In this document: in pieces, positions 8,923-29,002 of the stretch
How positions within the stretch are numbered: position 1 is the stretch's first letter
Layout of the letters: the number at the start of each line of letters is the position of its first letter
Assembly (NCBI GenBank): GCA_024654605.1
Contig: JANLHH010000054.1
Coordinates: 1 to 38,559 of the forward strand
DNA: 38,559 bases
Direction: 5' to 3'
DNA from: Patescibacteria group bacterium
GTDB lineage: Bacteria > Patescibacteriota > Minisyncoccia > Phycocordibacterales > JANLHH01
Notes under the pieces: generated by a model
Databases searched by the model: none
Told to the model about the DNA's origin: nothing
Seen by the model: only the letters and a program-made list of their open reading frames with translations
Made by a program: the position numbers and the translations under genes

Positions 8923-9798
8923 TTAAAATGGATTTTTTGCGCCACGAACCTCAAAGTGCAAGTGTGATCCTGTTGATTTTCCGGTTGATCCGATGTAACC
9001 GATAATCTGTCCTTGCACCACATGCGCTCCTTCGCTCACGATATTCTTGCTGTTATGCGCATAGAGTGTTTGCGTTCCGTTGGGATGACTGATGACGATA
9101 TATGTTCCATATCCTCCATTCCACCCTCCGCTACGACTGATGATCACATCACCCGTAGCTGAAGCAAGAATGGGTGTACCAACCGGCGCGGCAAGGTCAA
9201 CGCCATTATATCCGTGCAATCCTTGTGTTTTTGTGCCACCGACAACAGGACGAAGGTAGTATCCGCTGTAAGAGGGAGTGTTGGTACCACGCACGGCAGT
9301 CTTTGTGGTAGATGTCTTTGGTGTTTCAATCTCTCCATCGGGAATCACCACCACATCACCAACCGCAAGCGCTTCTCCCTCCGTAAGGCCGTTAAACCCG
9401 ATCACTTCGTCCATGTCACCTTTGTATTTTCCCACGATACCTTTAAGCGTATCTCCTTTTAAGACAGTGTGTCGTATGCCAGAAATAGGGAGAATAACGA
9501 GAGTTTGGCCTTCCGAAACCAAGCTACCCCGCTTGATGTCGTTTGCCCAAATGATAGTGTTAGTCGTCACGCCAAACATTTTAGCAATCTGGGAAAGCGA
9601 ATCTCCTTCACGCACCACATATAAGCTGATCTGGTCAGATGTTGTTGAGTTATCCTCAATGTCCGCCAGTGTCCCCGAAGGGCCGGCATCAGGCAAAAGG
9701 GCGGTACCGCCTACAATTGTAATATCACCTCCTCCTTTTGCGGGATTAGGGTCAAAGTTTGAGGCAGCTTGCAGTAAGGCCATATTTTGTGAGTTCAC
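8923..9798 (-). CDS. Peptidoglycan hydrolase with two LysM domains and an M23 (LytM-type) metallopeptidase
   Basis: LysM repeats are YVVREGDSLSQIAKMFGV... and HTVLKGDTLKGIVGKY.... M23 motifs are HGYNGVDLAAP (HxxxD) and GSHLHFEV (HxH). The in-frame upstream sequence (to 10062) encodes a TM anchor but has no ATG, GTG or TTG, so the true 5' end is unresolved. Confidence 0.85.
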   Translation of the reverse strand: MNSQNMALLQAASNFDPNPAKGGGDITIVGGTALLPDAGPSGTLADIEDNSTTSDQISLYVVREGDSLSQIAKMFGVTTNTIIWANDIKRGSLVSEGQTLVILPISGIRHTVLKGDTLKGIVGKYKGDMDEVIGFNGLTEGEALAVGDVVVIPDGEIETPKTSTTKTAVRGTNTPSYSGYYLRPVVGGTKTQGLHGYNGVDLAAPVGTPILASATGDVIISRSGGWNGGYGTYIVISHPNGTQTLYAHNSKNIVSEGAHVVQGQIIGYIGSTGKSTGSHLHFEVRGAKNPF

Positions 9799-12327: not shown

Positions 12328-13098
12328 ATGCGTATGCGGGCAAAAAAATCATTGGGACAACATTTCTTGAAGTCAAAACACGTGGTGTCTTTGATTGTTT
12401 CGACTGCAAATATCTCCGCGACTGATACGATTCTTGAAGTTGGTCCGGGGAAGGGTGTGCTGACCGAGGCGCTTCTTGAAAAGGCGGCGCGAGTAATCGC
12501 GATTGAAAAAGACGACCGCCTTATTTCTTTTCTTGAAGAAAAATTTGCCGCTGAAATAAAAACGGGGAAACTGGTGCTCGTTCACGAGGATGTTCTCTCT
12601 TTTGATCCCGGAGAAGCAGGTTTAGGAAACGGAAAATATAAAGTAGTCGCCAATATTCCCTACTACATCACCGGGCAGTTATTCAGGTTATTCCTGGAAT
12701 CCTCTGTTCAACCATCTCTTATGGTATTGCTGATCCAAAAAGAAGTGGCGATGCGCATCGCGGCAAAGGACAAAAAAGAAAGTCTTCTTTCCATCAGTGT
12801 CAAAATCTATGGAGTACCGCGTTATGTGAAGAGCGTGCCCGCTCGCTATTTTTCTCCAGTGCCGCGAGTGGATTCCGCAATCCTGTCGGTGGAACATATC
12901 GCTTCCCCGTTCCGAAGAGATACAGAGTGTGAAAAGTTTTTTGCTCTCGCACGAAAAGGCTTCGCGCATAAGCGAAAATTATTGAGAGGCAACCTTGGGT
13001 GCGAAACGAAAATCTTTGAAACGTGTAATATACAAGAAAAGGCGCGCGCGGAAAATCTTACGGTGGGAAATTGGCTATGCTTAAACAAACATCTTTAA
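12328..13098 (+). CDS. rsmA: 16S rRNA (adenine1518/1519-N6)-dimethyltransferase
   Basis: KKSLGQHFL, the SAM-binding ILEVGPGKGVLT and NIPYYIT motifs are present. Confidence 0.92.
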   Translation: MRMRAKKSLGQHFLKSKHVVSLIVSTANISATDTILEVGPGKGVLTEALLEKAARVIAIEKDDRLISFLEEKFAAEIKTGKLVLVHEDVLSFDPGEAGLGNGKYKVVANIPYYITGQLFRLFLESSVQPSLMVLLIQKEVAMRIAAKDKKESLLSISVKIYGVPRYVKSVPARYFSPVPRVDSAILSVEHIASPFRRDTECEKFFALARKGFAHKRKLLRGNLGCETKIFETCNIQEKARAENLTVGNWLCLNKHL

Positions 13099-13589: not shown

Positions 13590-13603
13590 ATCTGCTCTCA
13601 AAT

Positions 13604-13641
13604 AAAAAGAGGCATTCCACTAAAGTGGAATGCCTCTTTTT
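13604..13641. terminator. Bidirectional rho-independent terminator
   Basis: AAAAAGAGGCATTCCAC-taaa-GTGGAATGCCTCTTTTT. Confidence 0.8.
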
Positions 13642-13658
13642 ATTTTTTGTTTACTTTT

Positions 13659-14654
13659 TTAATTCTTTGAGGTTCCGATACTCGTAGCAGTCCCGTCATC
13701 AGGAGATTCTGATTCTTCACATTCACTGGCAATCGTAAAGCATGTTCCCCCGGACTGATAGAGCCCGACAACTGATTGTCCTGTGCCGGTCGTATTATAT
13801 TCACTGTATATCTGCGTACCAACCGCCTCCCCGACCAGTATCTGCGCTCCGTTCGGATCACCAACCGTAATAATGGAACTTCCGTCGCAACATTGATGAT
13901 CAATACTTTCTACTTTGCCGCCGAATGATTTTTTTTCTCCCTGACCGCCACCGCCGATTCCACCCGGCGGAGGACCGCCAATCGGCTCACAACTGGTAGT
14001 CTTGGAAAAAAACTCTTTAAACCCGGGACATCCTTCAGAGAAAAGATTGTTGGTGACGGGACAATTACCGGGCTCTTGCAGATATATATCGTCATCCGTA
14101 CAACCTTTTTTCCATTCCTTATAGAACTGGCTTATCGTGGGACCGGAAGGTTGGTATTGGGGACAGTATGCTTCAATATACTTAGCAAGCTGGAGTAAAA
14201 CAAGATTGCTCAAAGTCTCTCCGTCCGAGCCTAAACACTGAACGACATCACCCGGAAACGGTGGGGGGCCGGACGGTGGGGCCTGTATTTCGCCGGCAGC
14301 ATAAGGTTCTAATGTGCCACTTTTTTCTAATGTATTCGTAATGCCGGATGTAATGCCTGATATTGCGTCAAGGATAAAATTACCAGTCGTCTTCTTTTCC
14401 ATCTTTTTCTCTCCAAAATAGGGAGTGAGTGTCTGTCTTCCCGTGCCGCCACTGCTTTCCCTAAACGGAACTCTCACTATCTCTTCTTCTGGTAAAGCAA
14501 ACTCGTCAAATGCTGTTTTTTGGGGGATCGATTCGGATGCAAGAAAAAGAACGCCGCCCGTGAAAACAACTGCAACGATGACCACTATTATTTTGTTCAA
14601 AATCAAGCCCATGATATGCGCCTTGCTGCCTGTCTTAGTTTTATTATACAGCAT
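13659..14654 (-). CDS. Membrane-anchored extracytoplasmic Cys-rich protein, no recognisable family
   Basis: It has an N-terminal TM helix (LILNKIIVVIVAVVFTGGVLFLA). There are 10 Cys, all in the C-terminal region of about 200 aa, plus a Pro/Gly tract (GGPPPGGIGGGGQG). The start is at 14654 or the internal ATG at 14612. Confidence 0.7.
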   Translation of the reverse strand: MLYNKTKTGSKAHIMGLILNKIIVVIVAVVFTGGVLFLASESIPQKTAFDEFALPEEEIVRVPFRESSGGTGRQTLTPYFGEKKMEKKTTGNFILDAISGITSGITNTLEKSGTLEPYAAGEIQAPPSGPPPFPGDVVQCLGSDGETLSNLVLLQLAKYIEAYCPQYQPSGPTISQFYKEWKKGCTDDDIYLQEPGNCPVTNNLFSEGCPGFKEFFSKTTSCEPIGGPPPGGIGGGGQGEKKSFGGKVESIDHQCCDGSSIITVGDPNGAQILVGEAVGTQIYSEYNTTGTGQSVVGLYQSGGTCFTIASECEESESPDDGTATSIGTSKN

Positions 14655-14698
14655 TATCCACAGCGCTCAATGTTTTTCTGTATTAAAAAGTTCTCATT

Positions 14699-14707
14699 TG
14701 CTATACT
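14699..14707 (+). promoter_or_regulatory. Extended -10 element (TGCTATACT) upstream of the 14726 operon
   Basis: This is the same TGCTAT-type motif seen before other genes. It lies 19 nt before the ATG at 14726, in a divergent intergenic region. Confidence 0.45.
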
Positions 14708-14725
14708 TGTTAAAAGAACCCTCAT

Positions 14726-15718
14726 ATGCACCATTATTTGCCGAGCAAAAAATTACTACTCATGATACTCTCCGTCGTATTGGTGGGAGGGGGGGTGTTT
14801 TGGGTAGCGAGCATTGGAAAGAACAAGTCTCAAAATTCTTCGTTCGCTAGAGAATCAGTAAAGGTTACCGACCTTGCTCTGTCCTATACTGAACAAGATA
14901 TTGATGGGGATGGACTTAAAGATTGGGAAGAATCACTCTGGGGGACCGATGTGAAAAATCCCGATACTGATGGGGATGGAACGTCTGACGGCGATGAAGT
15001 GGCGGCAAAAAGGGATCCGAATATTGCGGGACCAGATGATGTGTATGTGGAACAAGATATTCAAACAAAAACAGAGGGTCAAGTAACGTCAACCGAAGAC
15101 TTGTCACAAACAGCGCTTTTGGCACGAGAGTATTTCGCAACCATTATAAACCTCAAAGAAAGCGGGAATTTCAACGCAGAGACAGTGTCTCAACTTTCAG
15201 AATCACTCGTTCAAAATTTCGCGGGAGAAAACAGTATCGGTGCAAAGCGGAGCAAATCGGACCTATTTCTTACGGAAGACAATAGCACCGAATCTCTCCG
15301 TACGTACGGCAACACAATGGGTACTATTGTAAAAAAATACGCGGGATACAATTTGCCGAACGAACTCGTGGTAGTAGCCGACGCGCTTGAGACGCAAGAC
15401 GAGAGTAAGTTAAAGAAACTTGATCGCAGTATAGAGGTCCACAAAGCTCTCATTGCGGAGTTTACTGCCGTTCGTGTTCCTTTGGATGCCGCAAATATTC
15501 ACCTCGCGCTCATCAACACCTATATTGCAACCGAACAATCAATTGAACAAATGAATACCATGTTTGCGGATCCTCTCGTGGGAATGCTCGGCATAAACTC
15601 CTATACCACACACACCGAATCGTTGGACAAAATATTTGCTGACTTAAGATCGTATTTCCCCTCCCGAGGCGTTTTCTTTGAAAAGAAAGAGTCGGGATAC
15701 GTATTCGCCGCAAGATAA
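14726..15718 (+). CDS. Membrane-anchored protein with thrombospondin-type-3-like Ca-binding repeats
   Basis: N-terminal TM helix (LLLMILSVVLVGGGVFWV). It is followed by DIDGDGLKDWEE..NPDTDGDGTSDGDE (DxDxDG repeats), with the rest helical and of unknown family. Confidence 0.7.
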   Translation: MHHYLPSKKLLLMILSVVLVGGGVFWVASIGKNKSQNSSFARESVKVTDLALSYTEQDIDGDGLKDWEESLWGTDVKNPDTDGDGTSDGDEVAAKRDPNIAGPDDVYVEQDIQTKTEGQVTSTEDLSQTALLAREYFATIINLKESGNFNAETVSQLSESLVQNFAGENSIGAKRSKSDLFLTEDNSTESLRTYGNTMGTIVKKYAGYNLPNELVVVADALETQDESKLKKLDRSIEVHKALIAEFTAVRVPLDAANIHLALINTYIATEQSIEQMNTMFADPLVGMLGINSYTTHTESLDKIFADLRSYFPSRGVFFEKKESGYVFAAR

Positions 15719-15723
15719 ACACT

Positions 15724-17259
15724 ATGCATTTTTTTAAACCACACAGTATTATAGCCATACTTCTCTTAGTTTCATTCCTCGGAGCTCCTCTTTTTTTCTT
15801 AAAACCTCCTCCCACGCATGCTGCCAGTTTTTGTGGAGTTAATATCAATATAGGTGGATCATCAAGCGGTATAGGGGGATCGGGAAATGATGAAGTTCCC
15901 GTGAAAGAGAAGGAACAGAGGAGTAAAGAATCCTTAGGGGATTGCCTCGTTAGCATAGCGGCAAAAATAGCGGCAAAAATACTCACCCAATCAATCCTTG
16001 ATTGGATAAATTCCGGTTTCAAAGGACAACCAACATTTGTGCAAGATCCGAAAAAGTTTCTTGGCGATGTCGCCAATGAAGTATCGGGAGCATTCATCGC
16101 CGAAGTCGGACTCTCCGCGCTCTGTACTCCGTTTAGGCCGCAAATACAAATCGCTTTATATGGTATCCAAACATACTACCAAAGATCACAATGTACTCTA
16201 GGAGATGTGGTTGACAATCTGCAATCATTTTACGACGACTTCAACGCCGGCGGATGGACAGCGTGGATTAGTACGGTTCAACAACCACAGAACAACCCCT
16301 ATGGAGCCTACTTTATAAGTCTTCAGGAGCAACAGTTGCGTATATTGGAAGCAAAACAAAATGCCCGCGATGACGCCAGTCAGTCGGGAGGATTTCTTAG
16401 TATCTATGAATGCAGCCGCATGGACCCTTTTTATGGCGATCCGGATTTTCCTAATTACGAAACTCCCTACCATGAGGGCGGCATAAAAGGTTGTGAAAGT
16501 GCATCAAAAACAACTCCCGGTAGAACTATTGCGGGGCAAGCAGACTTTGCTTTAAGTATTGGTGGTAGGCAACTCATTGAAGCAGATGAATTAAATGAGA
16601 TGATCGGCGTAATAGCTGATGCGTTTATCAGCCAACTTATTAAACAAGGATTAAGTAGCTTGAATGAACGTGATAATCCGGATCTTTTTGAAGATCCTTC
16701 TATCGCAATCAAAGCTCAGTTAGAAGCGGATCTAGCTGACGCCATTGCAGCTACGGAGGCATATCTTGCCGCACTCACGAGTGGGCGCGATACATTGGAA
16801 GAACTGATACTACTTGCCGACGACAGAATTGCATGTTGGACCGCTGTTGATGCTTACGGGGCTACTCAAGAACCACCGATTGAGCCTCAGTACACCGCTA
16901 CAATCGCAGAAATCCAGGCACGAAAAGTGGAACTCTTAACACTCCTTGAAGAGAGTCCGGCCACCCCCGAGGAGGTCGCCTATGCGACTGATTTATTGGA
17001 CGACTTGCAAAGCACGGACCCGGAGAAAGACCCTCCGAGCATTCGCAGATTGCTTGACTTGGGGGATATCATTACCGCTCTCACTGAATTTGGGAAATTG
17101 GCGGGAGGAATACCTTCGCAAGAAATGATAGACGCCGTGGCGGCACAATCGGGGAACTACGAGGGAGAACTTATTGCCGCAAACACGGATCTCTTGGAAT
17201 GCCAAGAGCTACCTGGAGGAACGCCGACCGCAACAAGCACTCCTCCAATCACGCCTTAA
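15724..17259 (+). CDS. Secreted or anchored 511-aa protein, unknown family
   Basis: N-terminal hydrophobic signal or anchor (IIAILLLVSFLGAPLFFL..THAAS). It has 8 Cys, a Gly/Ser tract, a helical acidic C-terminal half and a Pro/Thr tail. It starts 6 nt after the preceding ORF. Confidence 0.7.
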   Translation: MHFFKPHSIIAILLLVSFLGAPLFFLKPPPTHAASFCGVNINIGGSSSGIGGSGNDEVPVKEKEQRSKESLGDCLVSIAAKIAAKILTQSILDWINSGFKGQPTFVQDPKKFLGDVANEVSGAFIAEVGLSALCTPFRPQIQIALYGIQTYYQRSQCTLGDVVDNLQSFYDDFNAGGWTAWISTVQQPQNNPYGAYFISLQEQQLRILEAKQNARDDASQSGGFLSIYECSRMDPFYGDPDFPNYETPYHEGGIKGCESASKTTPGRTIAGQADFALSIGGRQLIEADELNEMIGVIADAFISQLIKQGLSSLNERDNPDLFEDPSIAIKAQLEADLADAIAATEAYLAALTSGRDTLEELILLADDRIACWTAVDAYGATQEPPIEPQYTATIAEIQARKVELLTLLEESPATPEEVAYATDLLDDLQSTDPEKDPPSIRRLLDLGDIITALTEFGKLAGGIPSQEMIDAVAAQSGNYEGELIAANTDLLECQELPGGTPTATSTPPITP

Positions 17260-17273
17260 AGATTTCCGGTTTT

Positions 17274-17312
17274 ACACAGCATGACGCACACGCGTCATGC
17301 TGTGTATTTGTT
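17274..17312 (+). terminator. Rho-independent terminator ending the 14726-17259 unit
   Basis: ACACAGCATGACGC-acac-GCGTCATGCTGTGT followed by ATTTGTTT. Confidence 0.7.
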
Positions 17313-17413
17313 TAACTTTTGTTTATCTTCAGCGTATTTCCTGGCCTCGTAATCCGATATAAGTTCGTGTTACTTATCCTTGTGAGTTAATACCTTTTAT
17401 TCAAAACACATTC

Positions 17414-17422
17414 TGTTATAAT
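17414..17422 (+). promoter_or_regulatory. Extended -10 element (TGTTATAAT) for the VirB6-like operon
   Basis: TGnTATAAT lies 41 nt upstream of the start at 17464. The palindrome AGTGGTtcACCACT (17426-17439) follows immediately. Confidence 0.5.
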
Positions 17423-17463
17423 TAAAGTGGTTCACCACTATTGAACGTCTAATATCATTCATT

Positions 17464-19542
17464 GTGCGAAGGCGTGAAGCGCAAAAAAACATATATGCAA
17501 AAAAAGTAAGCTCTCTTGCTCCTTTTGTCGCTGGACTTCTCATCAGTATCGCTCTTCTCTCGCCGATATCTTTCAGTATTAAACCTTCTCAAGAGAGCGC
17601 GGCCATCGTTGCAATCTCACTCCAGAGCGCTTTGGCTCAAGAGGATGATGACGAAGTTGCTCCGGTTGACGAAAGTAGGGAAATTTCATCAAACCCTTTC
17701 TATGAGGGTTTCTGTTCTTTGAATTCTCCCTCTACATGGTTTCAAGGATGTATCGCGGCGGGATTCTATGAGATCATCTATACCCCATCGGCGCTTCTTC
17801 TTGCGGGAGGAGGATGGCTATTTGATGTCATGTTGGCATTTTCATTAAGCAGTACGGTACTTGATGCGGACTTTGCGCGAAACGGGTGGGCAATCACGCG
17901 AGATCTTGCAAATATGCTTTTTATTTTTATCCTTTTAGCAATCGCTATCGCCACAATACTCCAAATTTCCAGTTATGGCGCAAAGAGTCTGCTTGCGCGG
18001 CTTGTCATTGTGGCACTTCTCCTGAACTTTAGTTTGTTCATTACGAGAGTCGTAGTGGATGTTTCCAATGTTACCGCGCGATTATTCTACGACAGTATTT
18101 CATCGGCAAACACAACCGCAAACGTCGCAAGCGGAGCAAACGCTTTGACTGCTTCGAGCTATCTCAAAGCCGGTTTTGACGTTCCCCCGAAAGATATCTC
18201 AGCGGGACTTGTGGGGGCATTTAATCCCCAGCAGTTGCTCGGCATAGAGAGTTTCAGCACATGGGTCAAAAGCGGCAAAGGTTTAGGTGAATTGTTTTTT
18301 ATCTATCTTTTTGCAACAACCCTTAATATCATGACGGCATGGATCTTTGTTTCTATCGCCCTACTTTTTATTACCCGTGTTGCGGTAATCTGGTTTTTGA
18401 TGGCTGTCGCACCCCTTGCGTTCATCGCAACAATCCTTCCTAACACAAAATCATTGGCAAGCAAATGGTGGGGCGAATTATTCAGTAAATCGTTCTCTAT
18501 TGCGGTTTTTCTTTTCTTTCTGTGGATCATCGCGGCGCTTACCAGCAGCAGCTTCCTTAAAAATACTTTTAATACCAGCGTTTCTGCCGATGGCGGTCTT
18601 CTGCAGTTTGTTGTTATTGTCGGGCTTCAGTTTGGAGTTTTAATTGTTATGCTTATGATGGCAAAGAAGGTTACGATGAGTATGGCGGGTTCCATCGGCG
18701 GCGTATCGCTTAATATCGGCAACAAACTGGCTGGTGGCGCCTTGGGATTGTTGGCTGGCGGTGTAGGCGGGCGATTGGCGCGAGGAGTCATCGGAAGAGG
18801 CGGCGCCATGATGGCCGGCAGTGAGGGGCTTCGCAACGCGGAGCAGAAGGGTGGGGCAACCGGGTGGGCCGCCCGACGAATGCTCCTTGCGGGCGATGCG
18901 GTCAGCAAGAAAAGTTTTGACATACGCAATGTACCGGCTGTACAAAAAGCCATGGGGTCTATCGACGCAGGCTTAGGGAAAGGTGGTGGTAAAGGAGGTT
19001 ACGAGGCAATACTCAAGGCTCAGGTGAAAAAGAAAGAAGGTATTGGTAAATTCCTCGGTGGCGCGCGTGAGACACGCGACGAGAGCGCGCAAACACAAGC
19101 GGCACAGGGACGATTAGGGGCCGCTACGCTCGCATTGTCTGAAGCGAAAGCGAGAGAGACAGCTGCGAGAAGTGAGAAAGAAATTGCATCCGCTAGAAAC
19201 TTGGTTGCTCTTGCGGAAAGCAGAGTAAAAGAGGAACAAGAGACCATAAACTCAATAAAAAAAGGTGTAGATCAAAGATCTTTGGATAGAAAAACGGGAT
19301 ACATAAATAGACTGCAAACCAAAGGAGACAGTGTCTTAAGTACTCTTAAGAGAAGTGTGGGCCGCGCACCGGCACAGAAAGACAGACAAGCCGCACTGGC
19401 GTTAAGAAAAGGGAAGAAAACAGTAAAACAACTCGTGGACGAGGCGTTAGAAACATCAGGAGAAACTAAAAAAGAAAAACCGAAAGAGGAAGAGGGTGGA
19501 CAAAAAGGGTCGGGGGAAATAAAAAACAGATTTACCACGTAG
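17464..19542 (+). CDS. VirB6/TrbL-like polytopic membrane protein with a Gly-rich segment and a long charged C-terminal tail
   Basis: 692 aa with about 8 hydrophobic helices. A Gly-rich stretch (GGALGLLAGGVGGRLARGVIGRGGAMMAG), typical of TrbL/VirB6 C-termini, is followed by about 230 aa of Lys/Glu/Ala-rich helix. It occupies the prgH-like position upstream of the PrgI-like and VirB4 genes. The GTG start is not firmly supported. Confidence 0.7.
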   Translation: MRRREAQKNIYAKKVSSLAPFVAGLLISIALLSPISFSIKPSQESAAIVAISLQSALAQEDDDEVAPVDESREISSNPFYEGFCSLNSPSTWFQGCIAAGFYEIIYTPSALLLAGGGWLFDVMLAFSLSSTVLDADFARNGWAITRDLANMLFIFILLAIAIATILQISSYGAKSLLARLVIVALLLNFSLFITRVVVDVSNVTARLFYDSISSANTTANVASGANALTASSYLKAGFDVPPKDISAGLVGAFNPQQLLGIESFSTWVKSGKGLGELFFIYLFATTLNIMTAWIFVSIALLFITRVAVIWFLMAVAPLAFIATILPNTKSLASKWWGELFSKSFSIAVFLFFLWIIAALTSSSFLKNTFNTSVSADGGLLQFVVIVGLQFGVLIVMLMMAKKVTMSMAGSIGGVSLNIGNKLAGGALGLLAGGVGGRLARGVIGRGGAMMAGSEGLRNAEQKGGATGWAARRMLLAGDAVSKKSFDIRNVPAVQKAMGSIDAGLGKGGGKGGYEAILKAQVKKKEGIGKFLGGARETRDESAQTQAAQGRLGAATLALSEAKARETAARSEKEIASARNLVALAESRVKEEQETINSIKKGVDQRSLDRKTGYINRLQTKGDSVLSTLKRSVGRAPAQKDRQAALALRKGKKTVKQLVDEALETSGETKKEKPKEEEGGQKGSGEIKNRFTT

Positions 19543-19584
19543 TGAGAGGGTCGAAATATGTTTTAAGTAACAAAAACTACTACT

Positions 19585-20379
19585 ATGGAAAATGACAAAG
19601 AACAACTTCTTGAACAATTCAAAAAACTACCTAAGGATCTTCAAGACGCCATAACGTCTAATGATATTGACGTTGCCATGCAGGAGATATCCAAAAAAAG
19701 TCACCTGCATATTGACCAGGCGGGAGAACTTGCCGATGAGGTAGGACTCGTACTGCTTGGCGTGGTGCATCCGGACGACTTCTTGGAAGATGTGGTGTTC
19801 AGGCTCAAGATTGACAAAAAAGCGGCTGGGGAAATCGTTGCTGATGTCAACGAGCATGTCTTTAAAAAAGTACGGGAATCTCTCATGAAAGTGCATCGCA
19901 TAGATAGTATGGTGCCGGGCGGCTTTAATGATTGGAGCGGGGCGGAGGTAGTGGCATCCGGAGACACAAAAGAGATACTCCCAAGCAAAGAAGAAATGCT
20001 CAAAGAGATTGAACAGGAAGTGGATGCGCCAACACCAAGTCCTCTGCGTGAAGAAAAAACAGATACCGCTCTCGGGGCTGTCGTGACACCACTCCCAGTA
20101 AATCATACGGGGAAGCTAAAAGAGAACGCTTTAGAACCAATGGATGCCACGCCGACAGTAAGCCCATTGGACGAGCAGAAAAAGAAAGTAGAAATGGGTG
20201 AAGGAGCAGCCTTAGATCCTTCATTTAACGAGGCTCGAAGCTTGGAAAAAGATGTTGTCAAACAAAAACTGGAAAAATCTTTCTCCATACCGCGAGCAGA
20301 AACTGAACATAAAGACACATCGCAAACACGTGCCGGAACTTATAAAGAAACAGACCCATATCGTGAGCCGTTAGAATAA
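19585..20379 (+). CDS. Acidic cytoplasmic hypothetical protein (264 aa)
   Basis: It has no TM segment, a helical N-terminal region of about 100 aa and an acidic, probably disordered C-terminal half. It is tightly packed between the VirB6-like and PrgI-like genes. Confidence 0.65.
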   Translation: MENDKEQLLEQFKKLPKDLQDAITSNDIDVAMQEISKKSHLHIDQAGELADEVGLVLLGVVHPDDFLEDVVFRLKIDKKAAGEIVADVNEHVFKKVRESLMKVHRIDSMVPGGFNDWSGAEVVASGDTKEILPSKEEMLKEIEQEVDAPTPSPLREEKTDTALGAVVTPLPVNHTGKLKENALEPMDATPTVSPLDEQKKKVEMGEGAALDPSFNEARSLEKDVVKQKLEKSFSIPRAETEHKDTSQTRAGTYKETDPYREPLE

Positions 20380-20387
20380 TACAAACT

Positions 20388-20795
20388 ATGCAATTTCAAG
20401 TTCCACAATTTATTGAGGTTGAGGATAGGATATTCGGACCGCTGACATTCAAGCAGTTCATTTATCTGGTGGGCGGAGCGGGAATTTGCTTCGTTCTTTA
20501 CATCATATTGCCATTCTTCTTTGCCGTTCTGCTCATCATTCCTTTTGCGGGTTTTTCGTTGGCGCTTGCTTTCTATAAAATCAACAACAGGCCCTTTATC
20601 TCTGTTGTTGAATCCGCCCTCAACTATACACTCAAAGGCAAACTCTATGTATGGAAAAAAGTGGCCGCCAAACCATCAGCGCAAAAAAAGGGGGTGGCTA
20701 AGGGAGTACCGCAAAGCCTGGAGCTACCCAAGCTCTCGGACAGTAAACTCAAAGAACTGTCATGGTCCCTTGATGTTCACCAGAATGTTCAGTAG
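20388..20795 (+). CDS. PrgI-family (VirB3-like) small membrane protein
   Basis: The N-terminus QVPQFIEVEDRIFGPLTFKQFIYLVGGAG is followed by two adjacent TM helices, the hallmark layout of PrgI/VirB3-like proteins that precede VirB4 in Gram-positive-type T4SS. Confidence 0.7.
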   Translation: MQFQVPQFIEVEDRIFGPLTFKQFIYLVGGAGICFVLYIILPFFFAVLLIIPFAGFSLALAFYKINNRPFISVVESALNYTLKGKLYVWKKVAAKPSAQKKGVAKGVPQSLELPKLSDSKLKELSWSLDVHQNVQ

Positions 20796-20844
20796 AACAC
20801 TTTAAGACACAGGGAGGTAATAAACATACGAGGGAGGGAGGGTA

Positions 20845-20853
20845 TGCTATAAT
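20845..20853 (+). promoter_or_regulatory. Extended -10 element (TGCTATAAT), an internal promoter of the T4SS-like cluster
   Basis: A perfect TGnTATAAT lies 38 nt before the ATG at 20892. TTCGTAA direct repeats (20861-20883) follow it. Confidence 0.5.
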
Positions 20854-20891
20854 TAATACGTTCGTAAGAAATTCGTAATTCGTTTTATTGT

Positions 20892-21530
20892 ATGGCGGCA
20901 AGCACAAAATCAGCACAAGACTTCGTTCCCATCAAAGAAGTGCGCAACGGAGTAATTATCCTCAAGGACGGGTCTATGCGAATCATCCTCATGGCGTCTT
21001 CTTTGAATCTTGCGCTTAAATCAAGTGACGAGCAGATGGCCATCACTCTGCAATTTCAAAGTTTTTTAAATTCACTTGATTTTTCCATTCAGATATTCAT
21101 CCAATCGCGCCGATACGATATCAGGCCATATATCGCATTGCTTGAGGATCGGGAACACAATCAGCTCAACGACCTCCTTAAAATACAAACGCGAGAATAC
21201 ATAAATTTCATCAAGAGCTTTACGGAAGCGACCAACATCATGACAAAAAACTTTTTTATTGTGGTTCCGTATACTCCATCCGGGATCGGTTCGCCACAAG
21301 GAGGAATTGGTGGTTTTTTACCGGGAGCAAAAGGCAAGAGGAGTAGTGCGCAAAAACTTGAGGATTTTGAAACTCACCACTCCCAGTTGAAACAAAGATC
21401 CTATGTTGTACAACAAGGGCTTAATAGGACAGGGGTTCGCGTGGTGCAACTCGGCACCGAGGAAGATATTGAACTCTTTTACAGGATGTTTAATCCGGGA
21501 GAGCTTGAGAAACCAATCCAGCTCTCGTAA
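20892..21530 (+). CDS. Stand-alone protein resembling the N-terminal domain of Gram-positive VirB4 (PrgJ-like)
   Basis: FVPIKEVRNGVIILKDGSMRIILMASSLNLALKSSDEQMAITLQFQSFLNSLDFSIQIFIQSR...FFIVVPY...ELFYRMFNP follows, from memory, the pattern at the start of long (about 800 aa) Firmicute VirB4 proteins. It has no NTPase motifs. Confidence 0.55.
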   Translation: MAASTKSAQDFVPIKEVRNGVIILKDGSMRIILMASSLNLALKSSDEQMAITLQFQSFLNSLDFSIQIFIQSRRYDIRPYIALLEDREHNQLNDLLKIQTREYINFIKSFTEATNIMTKNFFIVVPYTPSGIGSPQGGIGGFLPGAKGKRSSAQKLEDFETHHSQLKQRSYVVQQGLNRTGVRVVQLGTEEDIELFYRMFNPGELEKPIQLS

Positions 21531-21552
21531 TACATAACTTTTAATCAGAAAT

Positions 21553-23385
21553 ATGTCCTTCATAGACACTCTATTCGGAAAAAATAAAAAAGAACAGGAG
21601 GTAACTCCTATTCTCCCTCAAGAGATCTATGAGTCTGCGGTGTTGGAGCTCAAGGATGTCATCGCACCTTCCGCGCTCAAGATCACTCCCCGGGAGTTTA
21701 ACTTGGGAGACAAAATGGCACGCACCTTTTTTGTCATTTCATATCCGCGCTTCCTTTCCGATAGTTGGTTTTCTCCCATTATCAATCTTGATCGCGTATT
21801 TGATGTTTCCATATTCATCCATCCGGTAGATACGGCGCGTGTACTCAGGCAATTTCAGACAAAAGTAGCCGAAGTCCAAAGCCAGATATCCATGCGGGAA
21901 GAAAAAGGGCTGGTACGCGACCCGATGCTAGACACCGCTTATAGCGACTTAGAGGACCTCCGCAACAAGCTCCAACAAGCCCAGGAGCGACTCTTTGATG
22001 TAGGGCTCTATATCACCATCTATGCGGATGATCTCACTGAACTTGATCGGACAGAGTCGGAAATAAAATCCATTCTGGAGGCGAAACTCGTGTATTTGAA
22101 ACCGGCGCTTTTCCAGCAAGAAGAAGGCTATAAGAGCGTCATTCCTATCGGGACTGATCTCTTGAACGTGCACTCAAAATTAAATTCATCTCCTCTTTCC
22201 AGTCTTTTTCCATTCGTCTCGTTTGACCTCACTTCAGACAAGGGGATCCTCTATGGCATCAACCGGCACAATTCAAGCTTGGTGCTCTTTGATAGGTTTA
22301 GCCTTGAAAACTATAATTCGGTTATTTTCGCGAAGGCAGGTTCAGGAAAATCCTTTTCAACAAAATTGGAGATCTTGCGAACACTCATGTTTGATACCGA
22401 CGTAATTGTCATTGATCCCGAGCGGGAATATGAGTATCTGGCGGAAGCGACAGGGGGGCGCTACTTCAACATCTCCCTCACCTCAAAGCATCACATCAAT
22501 CCGTTCGACCTTCCTGTTCCGCGCGAAGACGAGTCTCCTGCTGATGTGCTGCGTTCAAACATCATCACGTTGGTTGGTTTGTTTAGGATCATGCTTGGAG
22601 GACTCTCTCCGGAAGAAGACTCCATTATGGATAGAGCTATTGCCGAGACCTACGCACTGAAAGATATTACTCCGGAATCTGATTTTGCGAGCATCGCGCC
22701 GCCCCTTATGTCTGATTTTGAACTGGTGCTCGCCGGCATGGAAGGAGGGGAGTCGCTCTTACAGAGACTTTCCAAATACACCAAAGGCACGTGGTCAGGA
22801 TTCATCAATAATCCCACCAATGTGGATATCAATAAAAAATTCGTAGTCTTTTCGGTACGAGACATGGAAGACGAGTTGAAGCCCGCCGCGATGTATATCG
22901 TCATGCACTTTATCTGGAACTCGGTGAGAAAGAACTTGAAAAAACGCCTCTTGGTGATTGATGAGGCGTGGTGGATGATGAAGTCGGAGGACACGGCGTC
23001 ATTCTTGTTCGGTCTTGCTAAGCGTGGAAGAAAATATTACTTGGGGCTCGCAACGATCACTCAAGATGTAGGCGATTTTCTCAAGTCTCCTTACGGACTC
23101 CCTATCATCACCAACTCCTCAATTCAGATTCTTTTAAAACAGTCACCCACATCCATTGATCTGGTACAGCAGACATTCAACCTCACTGATGAAGAGAAGT
23201 TTCTGCTTCTTGAATCTGATGTCGGGGAAGGAATCTTCTTTGCCGGTCTCAAGCATGTGGCTATTAAGATACTGGCATCTTATACCGAAGAGCAGATCAT
23301 CACCTCTGACCCGTCTCAAGTATTGATGATCAAAAAAGCAAAGCAGGATCTCAAGGACGCACGAGGAGCCGAGTCTGATACATAA
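21553..23385 (+). CDS. virB4: VirB4/TrbE-family T4SS ATPase
   Basis: 610 aa. The N-terminal region DVIAPSAL...ARTFFVISYPRFLSDSWFSPII is typical of Gram-positive VirB4. Walker A is FAKAGSGKSFS and Walker B is LLVIDEAWWMM, with a later ATITQD motif. Confidence 0.88.
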   Translation: MSFIDTLFGKNKKEQEVTPILPQEIYESAVLELKDVIAPSALKITPREFNLGDKMARTFFVISYPRFLSDSWFSPIINLDRVFDVSIFIHPVDTARVLRQFQTKVAEVQSQISMREEKGLVRDPMLDTAYSDLEDLRNKLQQAQERLFDVGLYITIYADDLTELDRTESEIKSILEAKLVYLKPALFQQEEGYKSVIPIGTDLLNVHSKLNSSPLSSLFPFVSFDLTSDKGILYGINRHNSSLVLFDRFSLENYNSVIFAKAGSGKSFSTKLEILRTLMFDTDVIVIDPEREYEYLAEATGGRYFNISLTSKHHINPFDLPVPREDESPADVLRSNIITLVGLFRIMLGGLSPEEDSIMDRAIAETYALKDITPESDFASIAPPLMSDFELVLAGMEGGESLLQRLSKYTKGTWSGFINNPTNVDINKKFVVFSVRDMEDELKPAAMYIVMHFIWNSVRKNLKKRLLVIDEAWWMMKSEDTASFLFGLAKRGRKYYLGLATITQDVGDFLKSPYGLPIITNSSIQILLKQSPTSIDLVQQTFNLTDEEKFLLLESDVGEGIFFAGLKHVAIKILASYTEEQIITSDPSQVLMIKKAKQDLKDARGAESDT

Positions 23386-23484
23386 AAGAGGTTACTTGTA
23401 CGGGGTAGATAAGAACTACTGTTTTAGATATAATGAAATTAATCTTTGTTCATCAAACAAAACTCCGAGGGACGTATTAAGACC

Positions 23485-24516
23485 ATGCCAAATAAGAGAA
23501 TCATAAAAATTCTTCTATCAGTAATACTATGCGGCGCTTTTACTATCCCTGCCCTTGCACAAGTTACTCCTGGAGAGAGACTTGGCATACAAGCATCTCC
23601 CGAAACTCCCGGTGCTTTTGAGCAAGTGACACTGCAGCTTTCCGGTTACGGTATTGATATAGACAGATTACACACCTCTTGGTATGTAAACGATAAACTG
23701 GAACTTGCCGGGATCGGTAAGAAAAAATTCTCTTTCACCACCAAAGGGGTGGGGTCTCCCTCCACCGTCCGTGTCCTTGTTCGCTCGGGGACTGCGGGGG
23801 TTATTAGCAAAACTTTAGTATTTTCACCAGCAGAGGTTGACCTGCTCTGGGAAGCGATTGATTCTTACACTCCTCCATTCTACAGAGGAAAAGCACTGGC
23901 GACCCCGCAAGCAACCATATCGGTTACCGCTATACCAAACATGACTGCCCCTGGCAAAAGCCCATTAGGAATAAAAGATGTCGTGTACAAATGGAAAAGA
24001 AACTTCAGTTATGCCGATTTCTATGATCAATCGGGTTACGGCAACAACTACGTTTTCTTCAAGAAAGACCCTCTCAAAAAAACCGACACCATAACTGTTG
24101 AAGCTTCCTCGTTTGATGGAACACTAAAGACGGTGAAAAATATAGACCTCCCGAGTTATGACCCAAAAGTCATTCTCTATGAGCATCGCCCGTTGGAAGG
24201 AATTCTCTATGAACACGCCGTGGGTGATACCTTTACCATGCAAAATAAAGAGGTACTTATATCGGCGGAGCCTTATTTCTTTTCTGTAAAAGACAAAGAC
24301 AGCAGTAATATTTCTTACGCGTGGCTGCTTGATAATAAACAGGTGGCCGATACGGAAAGTGATAAAAAGAGTGAGTTGGCACTCCGTACCGAGGGAGGAA
24401 GCGGACAGGCAAGGGTATCGCTTCGTGTCACGCATGTTACAAAAATTCTCCAGTTTCTTGAACAGTCATTCACCATAAACTTCGGGGAAACAAGTGGTAC
24501 CTCTTTTGGTTTTTAA
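23485..24516 (+). CDS. Secreted hypothetical protein (343 aa)
   Basis: It has a classic signal peptide (MPNKRIIKILLSVILCGAFTIPALAQV) and a beta-rich mature part with no recognised family. I prefer the ATG at 23485 over the track's TTG at 23446. Confidence 0.7.
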   Translation: MPNKRIIKILLSVILCGAFTIPALAQVTPGERLGIQASPETPGAFEQVTLQLSGYGIDIDRLHTSWYVNDKLELAGIGKKKFSFTTKGVGSPSTVRVLVRSGTAGVISKTLVFSPAEVDLLWEAIDSYTPPFYRGKALATPQATISVTAIPNMTAPGKSPLGIKDVVYKWKRNFSYADFYDQSGYGNNYVFFKKDPLKKTDTITVEASSFDGTLKTVKNIDLPSYDPKVILYEHRPLEGILYEHAVGDTFTMQNKEVLISAEPYFFSVKDKDSSNISYAWLLDNKQVADTESDKKSELALRTEGGSGQARVSLRVTHVTKILQFLEQSFTINFGETSGTSFGF

Positions 24517-24520
24517 TATT

Positions 24521-24964
24521 ATGAAAAAAATAAAGTCACCCATCATACACCTCGTCATACCAACACTCTCTGTGTTTATGCTCTCCGTAGTCTATGCGCA
24601 TGCCGCACTCCTTGAACCCTCTATTGGCGGAGGAAATGCAACCGGAAACCCTGGAGACTACTTTAATAATATCTATCGTCTTATGGTGGGGATTACCAGC
24701 GTGTTGGCTGTTATTATGATCGTGGTCGGAGGACTGGAGTATATAGCAAGCGCGGCAAACCCGTCCGCCAAAGCATCAGCAAAGAGCAGGATATGGGCAG
24801 CAATCGGAGGACTTTTACTTGCTCTCTCTTCCTATCTTATTTTGCAAACCATTAATCCTGATTTGGTAAACTTTAATCTCAATATAGAAAAAAAGGGATT
24901 GCAACAAACAGGTGGTGCAACAGGAGGAGGTGCACCGAGTGGGGGTACAATCAATGCTCAGTAA
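24521..24964 (+). CDS. VirB2/TrbC-like T4SS pilin candidate
   Basis: 147 aa. The signal peptide ends AHA. Two hydrophobic helices (MVGITSVLAVIMIVVGGLEYI and IWAAIGGLLLALSSYLILQTI) are separated by a short polar loop, and the tail is Gly-rich. The ATG at 24521 starts 5 nt after the previous stop. Confidence 0.65.
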   Translation: MKKIKSPIIHLVIPTLSVFMLSVVYAHAALLEPSIGGGNATGNPGDYFNNIYRLMVGITSVLAVIMIVVGGLEYIASAANPSAKASAKSRIWAAIGGLLLALSSYLILQTINPDLVNFNLNIEKKGLQQTGGATGGGAPSGGTINAQ

Positions 24965-24975
24965 GTAAGAAAAGT

Positions 24976-26226
24976 ATGTCAAAAAAAATCATTATCATCA
25001 TTATTTCAATACTTACGCTCATTGTGGCGATTGTTTTGGGTATGACACTTTTTAAAGACGGTGAAAGTGGTAGTGATGTTACCAAAACATTTGATAATTT
25101 TATGCCGTTTGGTATCCCTGAAGAGGATGGTGATACTGCTTTTCCCGACAACACCAAAGAAGACACCGACCTCTCTCAGGAAGAAGAGGTAGCGACACTC
25201 CCCGTATTACGACAACTCTCTAGTAGCCCCACCGCAGGCGCTATCGCCATACAGAAAACCATTGAGAGCGATGAGGGGCAAAAAGAGGTGCTCGTAGCCC
25301 GCTACATGGAACGCACCACAGGGCATGTGTATGAAACAACGGTGGAAACACTCAAAAATACACGCATCACAAACACGACTATTCCTAAAGTATATGAGGC
25401 ATTGTGGGGGGACAAAGGGGAGTCGGTGATTATTCGCTATATTAATGAGAATACCAACGCGATAGAGAGCTTCTCCGCCCGCATAATGAAACAAGAAGAG
25501 GGTGTGAGTGAGGGAACCCTTGAAGGCGTGTTTATGCAGAGTGGGATCAAAGAAATAGCCCTTTCTCCGACCAAGGGAACCATATTTTATCTTACACCGG
25601 GAGGAGACGGTACCATTGGTATCAGGTCAAAAATTGACGGGACTGACAAAGTGCAAATATTTGATTTTCCATTTACGGAGTGGCTGGCGCAATGGGCAAC
25701 GAACAAGAACATTTTTCTTACTTCTAAGGCATCAAATAATGTTTCCGGGTTTCTCTACACACTCAGCACGGCGGGTGGTCCTTTAAAAAAAGTATTGGGC
25801 AACATTTCCGGCCTCACTACGCTCTCAAACGGATTAGGAACGAAGGTTTTATACTCGGAGTCTACTGTGAACGGCTTGTCGGTGGGTGTAATAGATGTAA
25901 CCAGTGGTGAATCAAAAAAGCTCGGTATCACCACCCTGCCGGAGAAATGCATCTGGGCAAGTGATAATGTAACCATTTATTGCGGAGTACCGGAGGCTCT
26001 GCCTCAAGGACAGTATCCCGATATATGGTATCAGGGATTGACTTCGTTTACCGATACGATATGGAAGGTAAATACTGAGACAGCGTATTCCGAGGTTTTG
26101 TTAAAACCAACAGAGTCTCTCAATATACATCTTGATATTATCAAACTATTCCTTGATGAAGATGAGAATTACCTTTTCTTTACAGACAAAAAAGATTACT
26201 CTCTTTGGACACTGAAGATTAAATAA
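24976..26226 (+). CDS. Membrane-anchored hypothetical protein with a large beta-rich ectodomain
   Basis: An N-terminal TM helix (KKIIIIIISILTLIVAIVLGMTLF) and an acidic linker precede about 330 aa of repetitive beta-like sequence. A propeller-like fold is suspected but not demonstrated. Confidence 0.7.
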   Translation: MSKKIIIIIISILTLIVAIVLGMTLFKDGESGSDVTKTFDNFMPFGIPEEDGDTAFPDNTKEDTDLSQEEEVATLPVLRQLSSSPTAGAIAIQKTIESDEGQKEVLVARYMERTTGHVYETTVETLKNTRITNTTIPKVYEALWGDKGESVIIRYINENTNAIESFSARIMKQEEGVSEGTLEGVFMQSGIKEIALSPTKGTIFYLTPGGDGTIGIRSKIDGTDKVQIFDFPFTEWLAQWATNKNIFLTSKASNNVSGFLYTLSTAGGPLKKVLGNISGLTTLSNGLGTKVLYSESTVNGLSVGVIDVTSGESKKLGITTLPEKCIWASDNVTIYCGVPEALPQGQYPDIWYQGLTSFTDTIWKVNTETAYSEVLLKPTESLNIHLDIIKLFLDEDENYLFFTDKKDYSLWTLKIK

Positions 26227-27780: not shown

Positions 27781-28020
27781 TCATAAGAGAGGATCAATAG
27801 TGGGTTTTTGCCATGGATGGCATCTTAAAACCCTTCGTAACCCCGTAAAAATCCCTTTTAGGACACCGTATTTCGTAATTGCTTCAATGGTGTAATCGGA
27901 ACATGTTGGATAAAATGCGCATGTCGTGGAACGCCTGATGCCAAGCGACACCAATATCCCTTTATCAGGAGAGAAAACCTTTTGATACCACTTGATTATG
28001 TGGGTAAAAAAGTATTTCAT
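27781..28020 (-). CDS. yidD: Membrane protein insertion efficiency factor YidD
   Basis: CAFYPTCSDYTIEAI..YG..KG......RVLRCHPW is the YidD signature. Confidence 0.9.
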   Translation of the reverse strand: MKYFFTHIIKWYQKVFSPDKGILVSLGIRRSTTCAFYPTCSDYTIEAITKYGVLKGIFTGLRRVLRCHPWQKPTIDPLL

Positions 28021-28365
28021 TTATTTTTTTAAAAGATGCGCGTTTTTTAAAAGTACACGCACTTGATCTTCAAATTGACTATGAAGGAGTTCAGTACTAT
28101 TTTTTTTTGAAAAGAAAACGCAGACAAATCCGTTTTTTATATTATCGTACTCTTTTTGTATTGTCTGGTATGTCCATCTTTTTAACTTATTTCTTTCCAC
28201 CGCCTTTTTGGCGACCTTACTAGAAATAACAAAAGAAAACTTGCTTGGGGTCTCAAAATCTTTTTTCACAACAACAAGAGAGAGATGAGAGGAATGATAT
28301 GTTGCTCCCTTTTTATGACCCTTGGGAAATTCTTTTCTACTGACCTTTTTTAATCTAGGCAACAT
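28021..28365 (-). CDS. rnpA: Ribonuclease P protein component
   Basis: A 114-aa basic protein with a KAVERNKLKRW-type RNR motif region, lying between rpmH and yidD. Confidence 0.85.
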   Translation of the reverse strand: MLPRLKKVSRKEFPKGHKKGATYHSSHLSLVVVKKDFETPSKFSFVISSKVAKKAVERNKLKRWTYQTIQKEYDNIKNGFVCVFFSKKNSTELLHSQFEDQVRVLLKNAHLLKK

Positions 28366-28480
28366 GTGTGAGTTTTTTCACCGAGAATTAATATCCACTC
28401 CTAGTGAATCATTTTAAAGCAGGGAATAAGCTCATACGACTTAGACCCGTGAGACGCTACTCAAAGAAACATCCACACTA

Positions 28481-28615
28481 TTACACCGCAAGCTTCTTTC
28501 TCCCTCCTGCTCTGCGTTTTTTGATGATATTTCTTCCGTTTTTGGTTCCTTGTCGCACCAAAAACCCGTGAGTTGTCTTTCTTTTTCTTTTTTTAGGGTT
28601 ATATGTTTTTGACAT
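28481..28615 (-). CDS. rpmH: 50S ribosomal protein L34
   Basis: It is not in the ORF track (44 aa). My own translation is [44 protein letters not shown], the L34 signature. TATACT lies 10 nt upstream of the ATG. Confidence 0.92.
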
Positions 28616-28805
28616 AGTGATTAAGAGTATATAACGAAATAACAGAAAAGTCCATTCATTTTTTGTTTCACTTGCTTGGGTTTATGGCTTTGAATATATC
28701 ATTAATAAATACAAAAAACGTACTTCTTAAAAAAGATTTTCGCACTAGCCTATATCATTCCAATGAAGTCAATATTTTAACTTGTTACTTCGGTATATAA
28801 TTGAT

Positions 28806-28900
28806 TGTGGATACTTAAGTTTTTTACTTTATCTTTGTTCTTCAATCTATTTTTCTCCCTCCTTTGAAAAATATTTTTAGTTATCCCCATTTTATCAACA
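28806..28900. promoter_or_regulatory. DnaA-box cluster upstream of dnaA (oriC left part and/or dnaA autoregulation)
   Basis: Three 8/9 matches to TTATCCACA: TGTGGATAC at 28806-28814, TTATCCCCA at 28881-28889 and TTATCAACA at 28892-28900. Confidence 0.6.
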
Positions 28901-29002
28901 GAGTAATGAAGGTTTTCTTGTTTTTCTCTTCTTGTAGGCAAAGGTATAATAGGTTTACTTTTTACTGGTTTATCGGTCTTTATAAATACCGTCACAAAAC
29001 GT

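Follow-up and report, generated by a model that had tools for sequence, protein, structure and literature searches.

The 38,559-bp stretch of DNA analysed here (the window) is an entire contig, JANLHH010000054.1, of a Patescibacteria metagenome-assembled genome (MAG; locus tags NUV49_), and all statements on the presence or absence of genes refer to this contig. Its central part, 14726-26226, carries ten open reading frames (ORFs) on the plus strand, separated by intergenic gaps of 4 to 204 nt and designated B to K in their order. Judging from the sequence, this block is almost certainly the native, origin-proximal type IV secretion system (T4SS) of a Paceibacteria cell (Patescibacteria, or Candidate Phyla Radiation). 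By its gene content it is a relaxase-less descendant of the monoderm conjugation machinery (mating-pair formation class MPF-FATA, pCF10-like), as described across Patescibacteria. It is thus a further Paceibacteria example of the already described Patescibacteria T4SS, and not a new system. The best explanation overall, which we regard as fairly probable, is that of a native T4SS assembling a VirB2-type pilus or conduit for host contact.

Related loci were collected by searching GTDB species genomes with an alignment of 11 VirB4 sequences, which gave at least 580 loci; the comparisons presented here use the best 80 of them. In these 80, VirB4 is 67-81% identical, and all are Paceibacteria/Parcubacteria-type MAGs (Zambryski-, Nomura-, Kaiser-, Yonath-, Campbell- and Lloydbacteria), the closed genome CP174360.1 included. 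Synteny was assessed by tblastn of the window proteins against the 80 loci, a locus being called eligible for a gene when its flank is long enough to hold it. The resulting presence counts are lower bounds, the accessory proteins being only about 26-30% identical to their relatives. Family membership was tested by Pfam and NCBIfam scans of all ORFs of the window.

The T4SS assignment is carried by five core genes. H (21553-23385, plus strand) encodes the body of the VirB4 ATPase, that is, its middle and C-terminal P-loop domains. It matches the NCBIfam model NF045971 ('VirB4-like conjugal transfer ATPase, CD1110 family') at 380 bits, for a cutoff of 325, and Pfam P-loop_TraG at 1.6e-26. At E <= 1e-3, 9518 homologues were found among cluster representatives. 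Both the Walker A motif GSGKS (G263, G265, K266, S267) and the Walker B motif DEAW (D470, E471, W473) are invariant among relatives, which bears out the original prediction of a VirB4 ATPase with these motifs, made from the DNA alone. The VirB4 of the enterococcal plasmid pCF10, PrgJ, is 26% identical to H over 555 aa (E 2e-43, PrgJ residues 225-772). This alignment starts only at PrgJ residue 225, and the missing N-terminal part is supplied by G (20892-21530, plus strand), a separate, TrsD-like protein corresponding to the VirB4 N-terminal domain. G aligns at 39% identity with the first 214 residues of P0002, a VirB4 relative of 797 aa in which both parts are fused (E 2e-49), as expected for the VirB4-N-like protein proposed earlier, and it matches NCBIfam TrsD (2e-4) and VirB4_plasma (1.5e-8, the VirB4 N-region). 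The two genes are joined by a clean TAA stop, 22 nt and an ATG. G was found in all 74 eligible loci, and 73 related loci encode it as an ORF of its own. The G/H split is thus natural, and not the product of a frameshift or of pseudogene formation, in line with the wide distribution of TrsD across Patescibacteria (PMC12102498). Another VirB4 relative from outside the window, P0001 (1263 aa, 61% identical), carries a large insertion exactly within Walker A (GGGKS|...|HNSY), which resembles an intein containing a homing-endonuclease domain.

F (20388-20795, plus strand) is a small membrane protein of the PrgI/VirB3 type, recognized by Pfam PrgI PF12666 above the gathering score (E 7.3e-10, 39.7 bits for a score of 27) and found in all 69 eligible loci. 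J (24521-24964, plus strand) is a VirB2-type T4SS pilin with a signal peptide and two hydrophobic helices (hydrophobic segments 6-31, 50-80 and 90-111). It matches T4SS_pilin PF18895 at E 3.8e-8 and 33.7 bits, also above the gathering score (26.6), as well as TrbC at 1.5e-3 and the NCBIfam Mbov_0395 pilin-like model at 1.5e-4. Both genes had been predicted as such, the second as a VirB2/TrbC-like pilin. Around J, the order of J and K is reversed in six related loci (L038, L045, L049, L054, L072 and L079), and several loci hold J-homologous ORFs far longer than 150 aa (median 316 aa, by our own ORF calling), which points to fused pilins, additional copies or wrongly called start sites.

The fifth core gene, D (17464-19542, plus strand), encodes a polytopic protein with about 6-7 hydrophobic segments and a long Lys/Glu-rich C-terminal extension, predicted to be cytoplasmic. 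Neither single-sequence nor profile searches gave a Pfam, NCBIfam or PDB match for D itself. TrbL/VirB6 (PF04610) is matched by 4 of 36 D orthologues (best E 6.2e-6). The consensus that hmmemit drew from the family matches it too, and no other Pfam model; at E 0.0033 and 17.7 bits this match stays under the gathering score, and it spans positions 26-213 of the 215 in the model. When compared with pCF10 PrgH by hhalign in local mode, the D profile gave a weak match (probability 8.8%). D is present in 53 of 54 eligible loci, and the gene at its position in a Paceibacteria genome is named VirB6 in Table S3 of PMC12102498. D is thus probably a divergent VirB6/TrbL-type channel subunit. The coordinates and the polytopic nature of the VirB6/TrbL-like protein of the original prediction stand, and its TrbL identity is reached through orthologues and the family consensus, not through a direct family match.

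The same components have been described together in the phylum. According to Quinonero-Coronel et al. 2025 (PMC12102498), Patescibacteria VirB4 proteins form a monophyletic, MPF-FATA-related clade. In that account, TrsD, PrgI/VirB3, VirB6 and VirB2-like (PF18895) proteins are widespread near virB4, relaxases are nearly absent, VirB8 and VirB1 are scarce, and virB4 lies close to dnaA, dnaN, rnpA, ksgA and rpmH, above all in Paceibacteria. The block has in common with this clade its VirB4 (by family match to NF045971), the separate TrsD (G, 22 nt upstream of H), PrgI/VirB3 and the PF18895 pilin, and with D probably a VirB6-like protein. Both also lack a relaxase and a type IV coupling protein (T4CP) near virB4, and both occupy a chromosomal, origin-proximal site beside dnaA, dnaN, rnpA, ksgA and rpmH. 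A Paceibacteria example in Table S3 of the same paper has the same layout, namely VirB6, an unannotated gene, VirB3, TrsD and VirB4. In the Saccharibacterium Southlakia epibionticum, Wang et al. 2023 (PMC10633639) described a T4SS (SEML1_0006-0019) with pilins and without a recognizable coupling protein or relaxase. Transposon sequencing showed this cluster and its pilins to be essential for epibiotic growth (PMC10633639). Whereas Southlakia has a six-gene essential pilin array and an in-cluster peptidase/lysozyme, the block has a single pilin gene and no such enzyme in the cluster. A 2025 FEMS review (PMC12857230) presents the Patescibacteria T4SSs as unique among those of monoderms, because they are needed for growth and possibly able to make conjugative pili, and speculates on a pilus conduit for uptake or signalling. 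The system had been catalogued well beyond the virB4/virB6 pairs mentioned by the original prediction (PMC12102498, PMC10633639, PMC12857230), whose statement that the accessory genes and the substrate are uncharacterized still holds.

Among plasmid systems, a close one is Prg/Pcf of pCF10 from Enterococcus faecalis, the prototype of MPF-FATA. H and PrgJ belong to the same NCBIfam VirB4 family, F is of the PrgI family, the envelope is monoderm in both cases, and the order of polytopic protein, PrgI and VirB4 is that of prgH-prgI-prgJ, in agreement with the core order first proposed. By contrast, the PcfC coupling protein, PcfG relaxase, PrgK hydrolase, VirB8-like PrgL and PrgB/PrgC adhesins are found in pCF10 only. 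The contig has neither relaxase nor coupling protein, and the cluster neither a PrgK/TrsG-type hydrolase nor PrgL/TcpC. Conversely, the block has a VirB2 pilin, absent from pCF10, a split VirB4 and five unrelated accessory proteins. The hhalign comparison of the B, C, D, E, I and K profiles with PrgC, D, E, F, G, H, I, J, K, L and M and PcfA, B and C, done in global mode (local mode being used for D against PrgH only), gave nothing above 11% probability.

The kinship with pCF10 raises the question of a decayed or cryptic integrative and conjugative element (ICE) that has lost its relaxase, coupling protein and integrase, as the VirB4 is in the same NCBIfam family as those of ICEs and plasmids (CD1110/PrgJ), the VirB6-VirB3-VirB4 order mirrors prgH-prgI-prgJ, and a tyrosine recombinase is encoded in the window. 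Conserved synteny speaks otherwise. In dozens of Paceibacteria species genomes, tblastn recovered the order pcrA-ksgA-B-C-D-E-F-G-H-I-J-K-(jag)-yidC-rnpA-dnaA-dnaN, with yidC in 56 of 59 and dnaA in 48 of 53 eligible loci. That dozens of species, with accessory proteins only 26-30% identical, keep this block flanked by an unchanged set of housekeeping genes argues for long vertical retention and against an ICE. Moreover, all ten ORFs are intact, the block genes have the same GC content (0.43-0.48) as pcrA, ksgA, tyrS and ruvC, and direct repeats of more than 22 nt were not found on either side of the block. The recombinase (3180-4115, minus strand) is Xer-type, matching the XerD, XerC and XerA models at E about 1e-70. 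It is separated from the first conserved gene by 10.6 kb that include rpsO, comM, pcrA and ksgA, and it falls within a 1-kb stretch of the highest GC content of the contig (0.51). Among the contig ORFs, the Pfam and NCBIfam scans revealed no relaxase, VirD4/TcpA coupling protein, VirB11, VirB8/9/10, replication protein or phage-type integrase. As almost every related locus carries the block at this site, the ICE reading is effectively refuted by synteny, and we consider it extremely improbable.

These results agree with most of what had been read from the DNA at the outset. The native character of the block was confirmed by the synteny check proposed at that time, and so was its base composition, similar to that of the flanking housekeeping genes. 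The contig scans likewise upheld the lack of relaxase, coupling ATPase, VirB11, VirB8/9/10, PrgL-like protein, in-cluster hydrolase, replication module and long flanking repeats. The claim that the window has no integrase holds for phage-type integrases and has to be amended for the Xer-type recombinase. The distance of the block to the rnpA-yidC-jag operon, put at about 2.5 kb, was incorrect: the end of the block is 218 bp from jag, about 1.8 kb from rnpA (28021-28365) and about 2.8 kb from dnaA (29003-30352). Finally, ORF A (13659-14654, minus strand), which had been counted as a gene of the block, does not belong to it.

Five conserved accessory families, B, C, E, I and K, accompany the core genes, four of them with an N-terminal membrane anchor or signal peptide and one, E, with neither. 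The first gene of the conserved block, B (14726-15718, plus strand), encodes a TSP3-repeat membrane protein. It matches Pfam TSP3_bac PF18884 at E 3.8e-7, above the gathering score, through two calcium-binding-type repeats with invariant Asp ladders. A hydrophobic segment (7-32), predicted to be an N-terminal anchor, precedes an all-helical ectodomain of about 190 aa. With 488 database homologues, B is present in 42 of 50 eligible loci. In its AlphaFold2 (AF2) model the mean predicted local distance difference test (pLDDT) score is 82.5 and exceeds 90 for the helical domain 128-313; Foldseek retrieved generic four-helix-bundle sensor domains only (E >= 0.5), and neither the model nor this search revealed a VirB5/TraC or VirB8 fold.

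C (15724-17259, plus strand) is a secreted or anchored Cys-containing protein of a conserved family that matches no known one. Its conserved N-terminal domain (about 70-320) has paired Cys residues and the motifs WINSGF.G.P.FV.DP, NNP.GAY, GFLS and TPG, and is followed by a variable helical C-terminal region; relatives are 314 to 1445 aa long, some with fn3 or Ig domains. Searches with the protein, its orthologues and the family profile gave no Pfam, NCBIfam or PDB match that explains the conserved N-domain, and no relatives outside the family. The AF2 model, from a 14-sequence alignment, has a pLDDT of 54 and is confident for 325-500 only, the conserved N-domain scoring below 50, and Foldseek returned nothing below E 0.1 for it. 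C is present in 40 of 51 eligible loci.

E (19585-20379, plus strand) is presumably cytoplasmic, since it has no hydrophobic segment. In the family alignment, a helical N-domain of roughly 100 aa is joined by a Pro/Glu-rich, disordered linker to a C-terminus with an invariant DPYRE peptide, which leaves just 2-4 residues before the stop. When the 80 loci and the window were translated in all six frames, DP[YF]RE occurred 49 times, in 47 cases at the C-terminus of an ORF just upstream of the PrgI gene, and the motif is kept in 33 of 35 database homologues of E. E itself, present in 50 of 62 eligible loci, had no Pfam or PDB match, and a literature search on the DPYRE motif gave nothing relevant.

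The last two families have predicted beta folds. I (23485-24516, plus strand) has a hydrophobic N-terminus, acting as signal or anchor, and about three Ig/PKD-like beta-sandwich domains. This class is suggested by the match of the family profile to the phage Hoc Ig-like domain (E 7.2e-5) and by orthologues matching PKD_6 (2e-7), PKD, Ig_3 and BiPBP_C, the Ig/PKD matches of the family consensus being sub-threshold. K (24976-26226, plus strand), the last gene of the block, encodes an anchored TolB-like beta-propeller protein with a hydrophobic segment (1-30) and a conserved Cys pair (C325/C336). Its family profile gives a run of weak TolB matches (best E 0.0099), and its orthologues match PD40 and DUF5050, one of them adding the peptidoglycan-binding PG_binding_1. 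I and K are present in 68 of 72 and 60 of 63 eligible loci, respectively.

Among the block proteins and their orthologues, no lysozyme, CHAP, NTF2-like, VirB8-like, VirB5-like or hydrolase fold was recognized. The original prediction had found no nameable family for these genes; this is no longer true of B, with its TSP3 repeats above threshold, and none of them matched a standard conjugation component. Neither the conserved set formed by B, C, E, I and K nor the DPYRE tail of E appears to be named in the text or tables of PMC12102498, PMC10633639 and PMC12857230, as far as these sources were available. One conceivable reading, which we hold to be rather unlikely, is that the five proteins are a Paceibacteria-specific T4SS module without counterpart in described systems. 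I, K, B and C would then make up a new complex that spans the wall of a monoderm and forms the tip of its VirB2 pilus, and E would dock through DPYRE on the split VirB4 or on the VirB6 tail, as a substrate or assembly adaptor replacing the coupling protein.

As background to the function of such a block, the VirB3, VirB4 and VirB6 proteins of R388, pKM101 and the Agrobacterium VirB/VirD4 system form an inner-membrane platform that extracts and polymerizes the VirB2 pilin. T4CPs are dispensable for pilus production in VirB/VirD4 systems. The block has VirB2, VirB3, VirB4 and, with D, probably VirB6 in common with this minimal pilus module. Unlike VirB/VirD4, it is from a monoderm and has no VirB5, VirB7-10 or VirB11, and its wall-spanning parts, if any, are unrelated (Ig/PKD, beta-propeller and TSP3). 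We propose that a VirB4 hexamer, formed by G and H, would be tethered to the membrane by F (PrgI/VirB3) and docked on the D (VirB6) platform. VirB4 would extract the J pilin from the membrane to build a VirB2-type filament or conduit through the monoderm wall. This model is proposed because VirB3, VirB4 and VirB6 form the pilus platform in VirB/VirD4 systems, where the T4CP is dispensable; it is supported by a pilin above the Pfam threshold within the operon, and conjugation machines are described as making pili by extracting pilin from a membrane pool (PMC13463995). I, K, B and C may form or decorate the wall-spanning and distal parts, replacing the missing VirB8, VirB1 and VirB5 functions, and E may be a cytoplasmic adaptor acting via its C-terminal peptide. 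The structure would serve contact with a host bacterium and probably macromolecule exchange, not conjugation.

A first alternative is suggested by the Helicobacter pylori ComB system, a chromosomal T4SS derivative repurposed from conjugation, with VirB2/3/4/6-like subunits and no relaxase, T4CP or VirB11. The block resembles ComB in having counterparts of VirB2, VirB3, VirB4 and probably VirB6, with relaxase, T4CP and VirB11 all absent from the cluster, and it could be a DNA-uptake machine of the ComB or archaeal Ced/Ted kind, i.e. a T4SS working in reverse to import host or environmental DNA for nucleotides or transformation. The import of DNA or other macromolecules is favoured in the account of PMC12102498, and Patescibacteria do not synthesize nucleotides (PMC10633639). 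H also partially matches the archaeal DNA importers CedB and CedD, but these matches are short P-loop stretches far below the cutoffs. Furthermore, ComB is a diderm system that has a ComB7-10 (VirB7-10) core complex and works with ComEC, whereas the Pfam and NCBIfam scans detected no equivalents of ComB7-10/VirB7-10 in the block, nor any DNA-binding protein. In Southlakia, deletion of comEC abolishes competence and not viability while the T4SS is essential, as related in PMC12857230, so the essential role of the T4SS there is not ComEC-dependent DNA import. On balance, DNA uptake seems to us an improbable main function.

A second alternative is that the system delivers effectors, injecting proteins into the host bacterium so as to subvert it or feed on it, in the manner of pathogen T4SSs and of the bacteria-killing X-T4SS. 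Wang et al. suggested that the Southlakia T4SS, without coupling protein and relaxase, 'may instead export proteins' (PMC10633639), and the T4CP-less Bordetella Ptl and Brucella VirB systems are cited as secreting proteins (PMC12102498, PMC12857230). C and I, secreted or anchored, variable in length and with adhesin-like domains, would fit this reading. However, no effector, chaperone or secretion-signal family is recognizable in the block, its conserved genes all look structural in the Pfam, NCBIfam and consensus scans, and the usual substrate receptor, the T4CP, is absent from the cluster. Effector export is compatible with the pilus model; as an explanation of its own, we rate it somewhat lower still than DNA uptake.

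Several points weigh against the preferred interpretation, a pilus-bearing native T4SS for host contact. We know of no Patescibacteria T4SS for which a pilus or transfer has been observed, and the function is for this reason deduced from the parts. By tblastn, J was recovered from no more than 55 of the 70 eligible loci. For D, the Pfam evidence for VirB6 is sub-threshold in the window protein, and the comparison with PrgH is weak. The roles suggested for the five accessory proteins follow from conserved position and fold class only; AF2 is not confident for the conserved domain of C, and B matches generic helical bundles only. A terminator-like hairpin at 17273-17306 (plus strand; 15-bp stem with 8 G-C pairs and a T-rich tail, by pattern match) between C and D may define two transcription units, B-C and D-K, in which case B and C might be a separate unit linked to the T4SS by position only. 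Rfam revealed no RNA element within the block. Finally, a T4CP-like ATPase may be encoded on other contigs of the MAG, T4CP homologues far from virB4 being reported as common in Patescibacteria (PMC12102498). Taken on its own, a pilus or conduit role of the block has, in our analysis, roughly even chances of being correct.

The surroundings of the block are those of a chromosomal origin region. The left flank encodes, besides the Xer-type recombinase, rpsO, an NYN-domain protein, comM/yifB, an M23/LysM peptidase, pcrA/uvrD, ksgA (12328-13098) and a DUF192 protein. The right flank carries jag, yidC, yidD, rnpA and rpmH on the minus strand, then dnaA, dnaN, a class-A penicillin-binding protein gene, tyrS, ruvC, yebC and ruvB. 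Two clusters of three DnaA-box-like 9-mers, with at most one mismatch to TTATCCACA, are located upstream of dnaA (28806-28900) and between dnaA and dnaN (30356-30465), consistent with an oriC at this place. A trough in GC content at 28000-32000 spans rnpA, rpmH, dnaA, dnaN and an ORF at 31726-31983, and reaches into the coding sequence (dnaA 0.32, dnaN 0.28 and rnpA 0.33, versus 0.43-0.49 for the T4SS block and other housekeeping genes). The difference in GC content between VirB4 and dnaN has the same direction in 48 related loci (median 0.069, maximum 0.144), the value of the window, 0.19, being the largest; the trough could reflect an origin-linked composition bias or a chimeric or recombined segment.

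ORF A, to the left of the block, encodes a 331-aa anchored, Gly/Pro-rich protein with 10 Cys residues. It was ruled out as a T4SS member since it is on the opposite strand, beyond a perfect 22-bp hairpin, and has a homologue in only one of the 80 related loci (L056, Yonathbacteria); it is a lineage-specific envelope protein outside the conserved T4SS block. Between ORF A and the convergent DUF192 gene, a perfect 22-bp inverted repeat with a 2-nt loop and A/T runs on its sides (13600-13645) looks like a bidirectional intrinsic terminator. The LysM and M23 peptidase (8923-9798, minus strand) is encoded just upstream of pcrA, about 4.9 kb upstream of B and thus outside the block, and occupies the same relative position in the three loci with a flank reaching that far (L014, L072 and L075). 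M23 and LysM domains are reported for some VirB1-like proteins (PMC12102498), and the enzyme could be a T4SS wall-remodelling enzyme or a plain cell-division endopeptidase. Two further observations concern the left part of the contig. The contig end truncates a tRNA (1-55, minus strand; Rfam RF00005, 37.6 bits), ARAGORN finding no complete tRNA in the window, and a 435-aa ORF (5492-6799, plus strand) between the genes for the NYN-domain protein and a DksA/TraR-type zinc-finger protein has no Pfam or NCBIfam family.

Patescibacteria, which live on other microbes and are for the most part uncultured, account for a very large part of bacterial diversity, and one genetic study found a T4SS to be essential for the epibiotic lifestyle. 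The locus analysed here adds no new kind of system, but the comparative analysis defines a conserved ten-gene Paceibacteria operon including five accessory families. These five conserved families, among them the cytoplasmic protein with the invariant C-terminal DPYRE peptide, are what most deserves follow-up. Should the accessory proteins turn out to be the missing parts that span the wall and act as adaptor, they would show how a monoderm can build a T4SS with a pilus in the absence of VirB8, VirB1, VirB5 and a T4CP.

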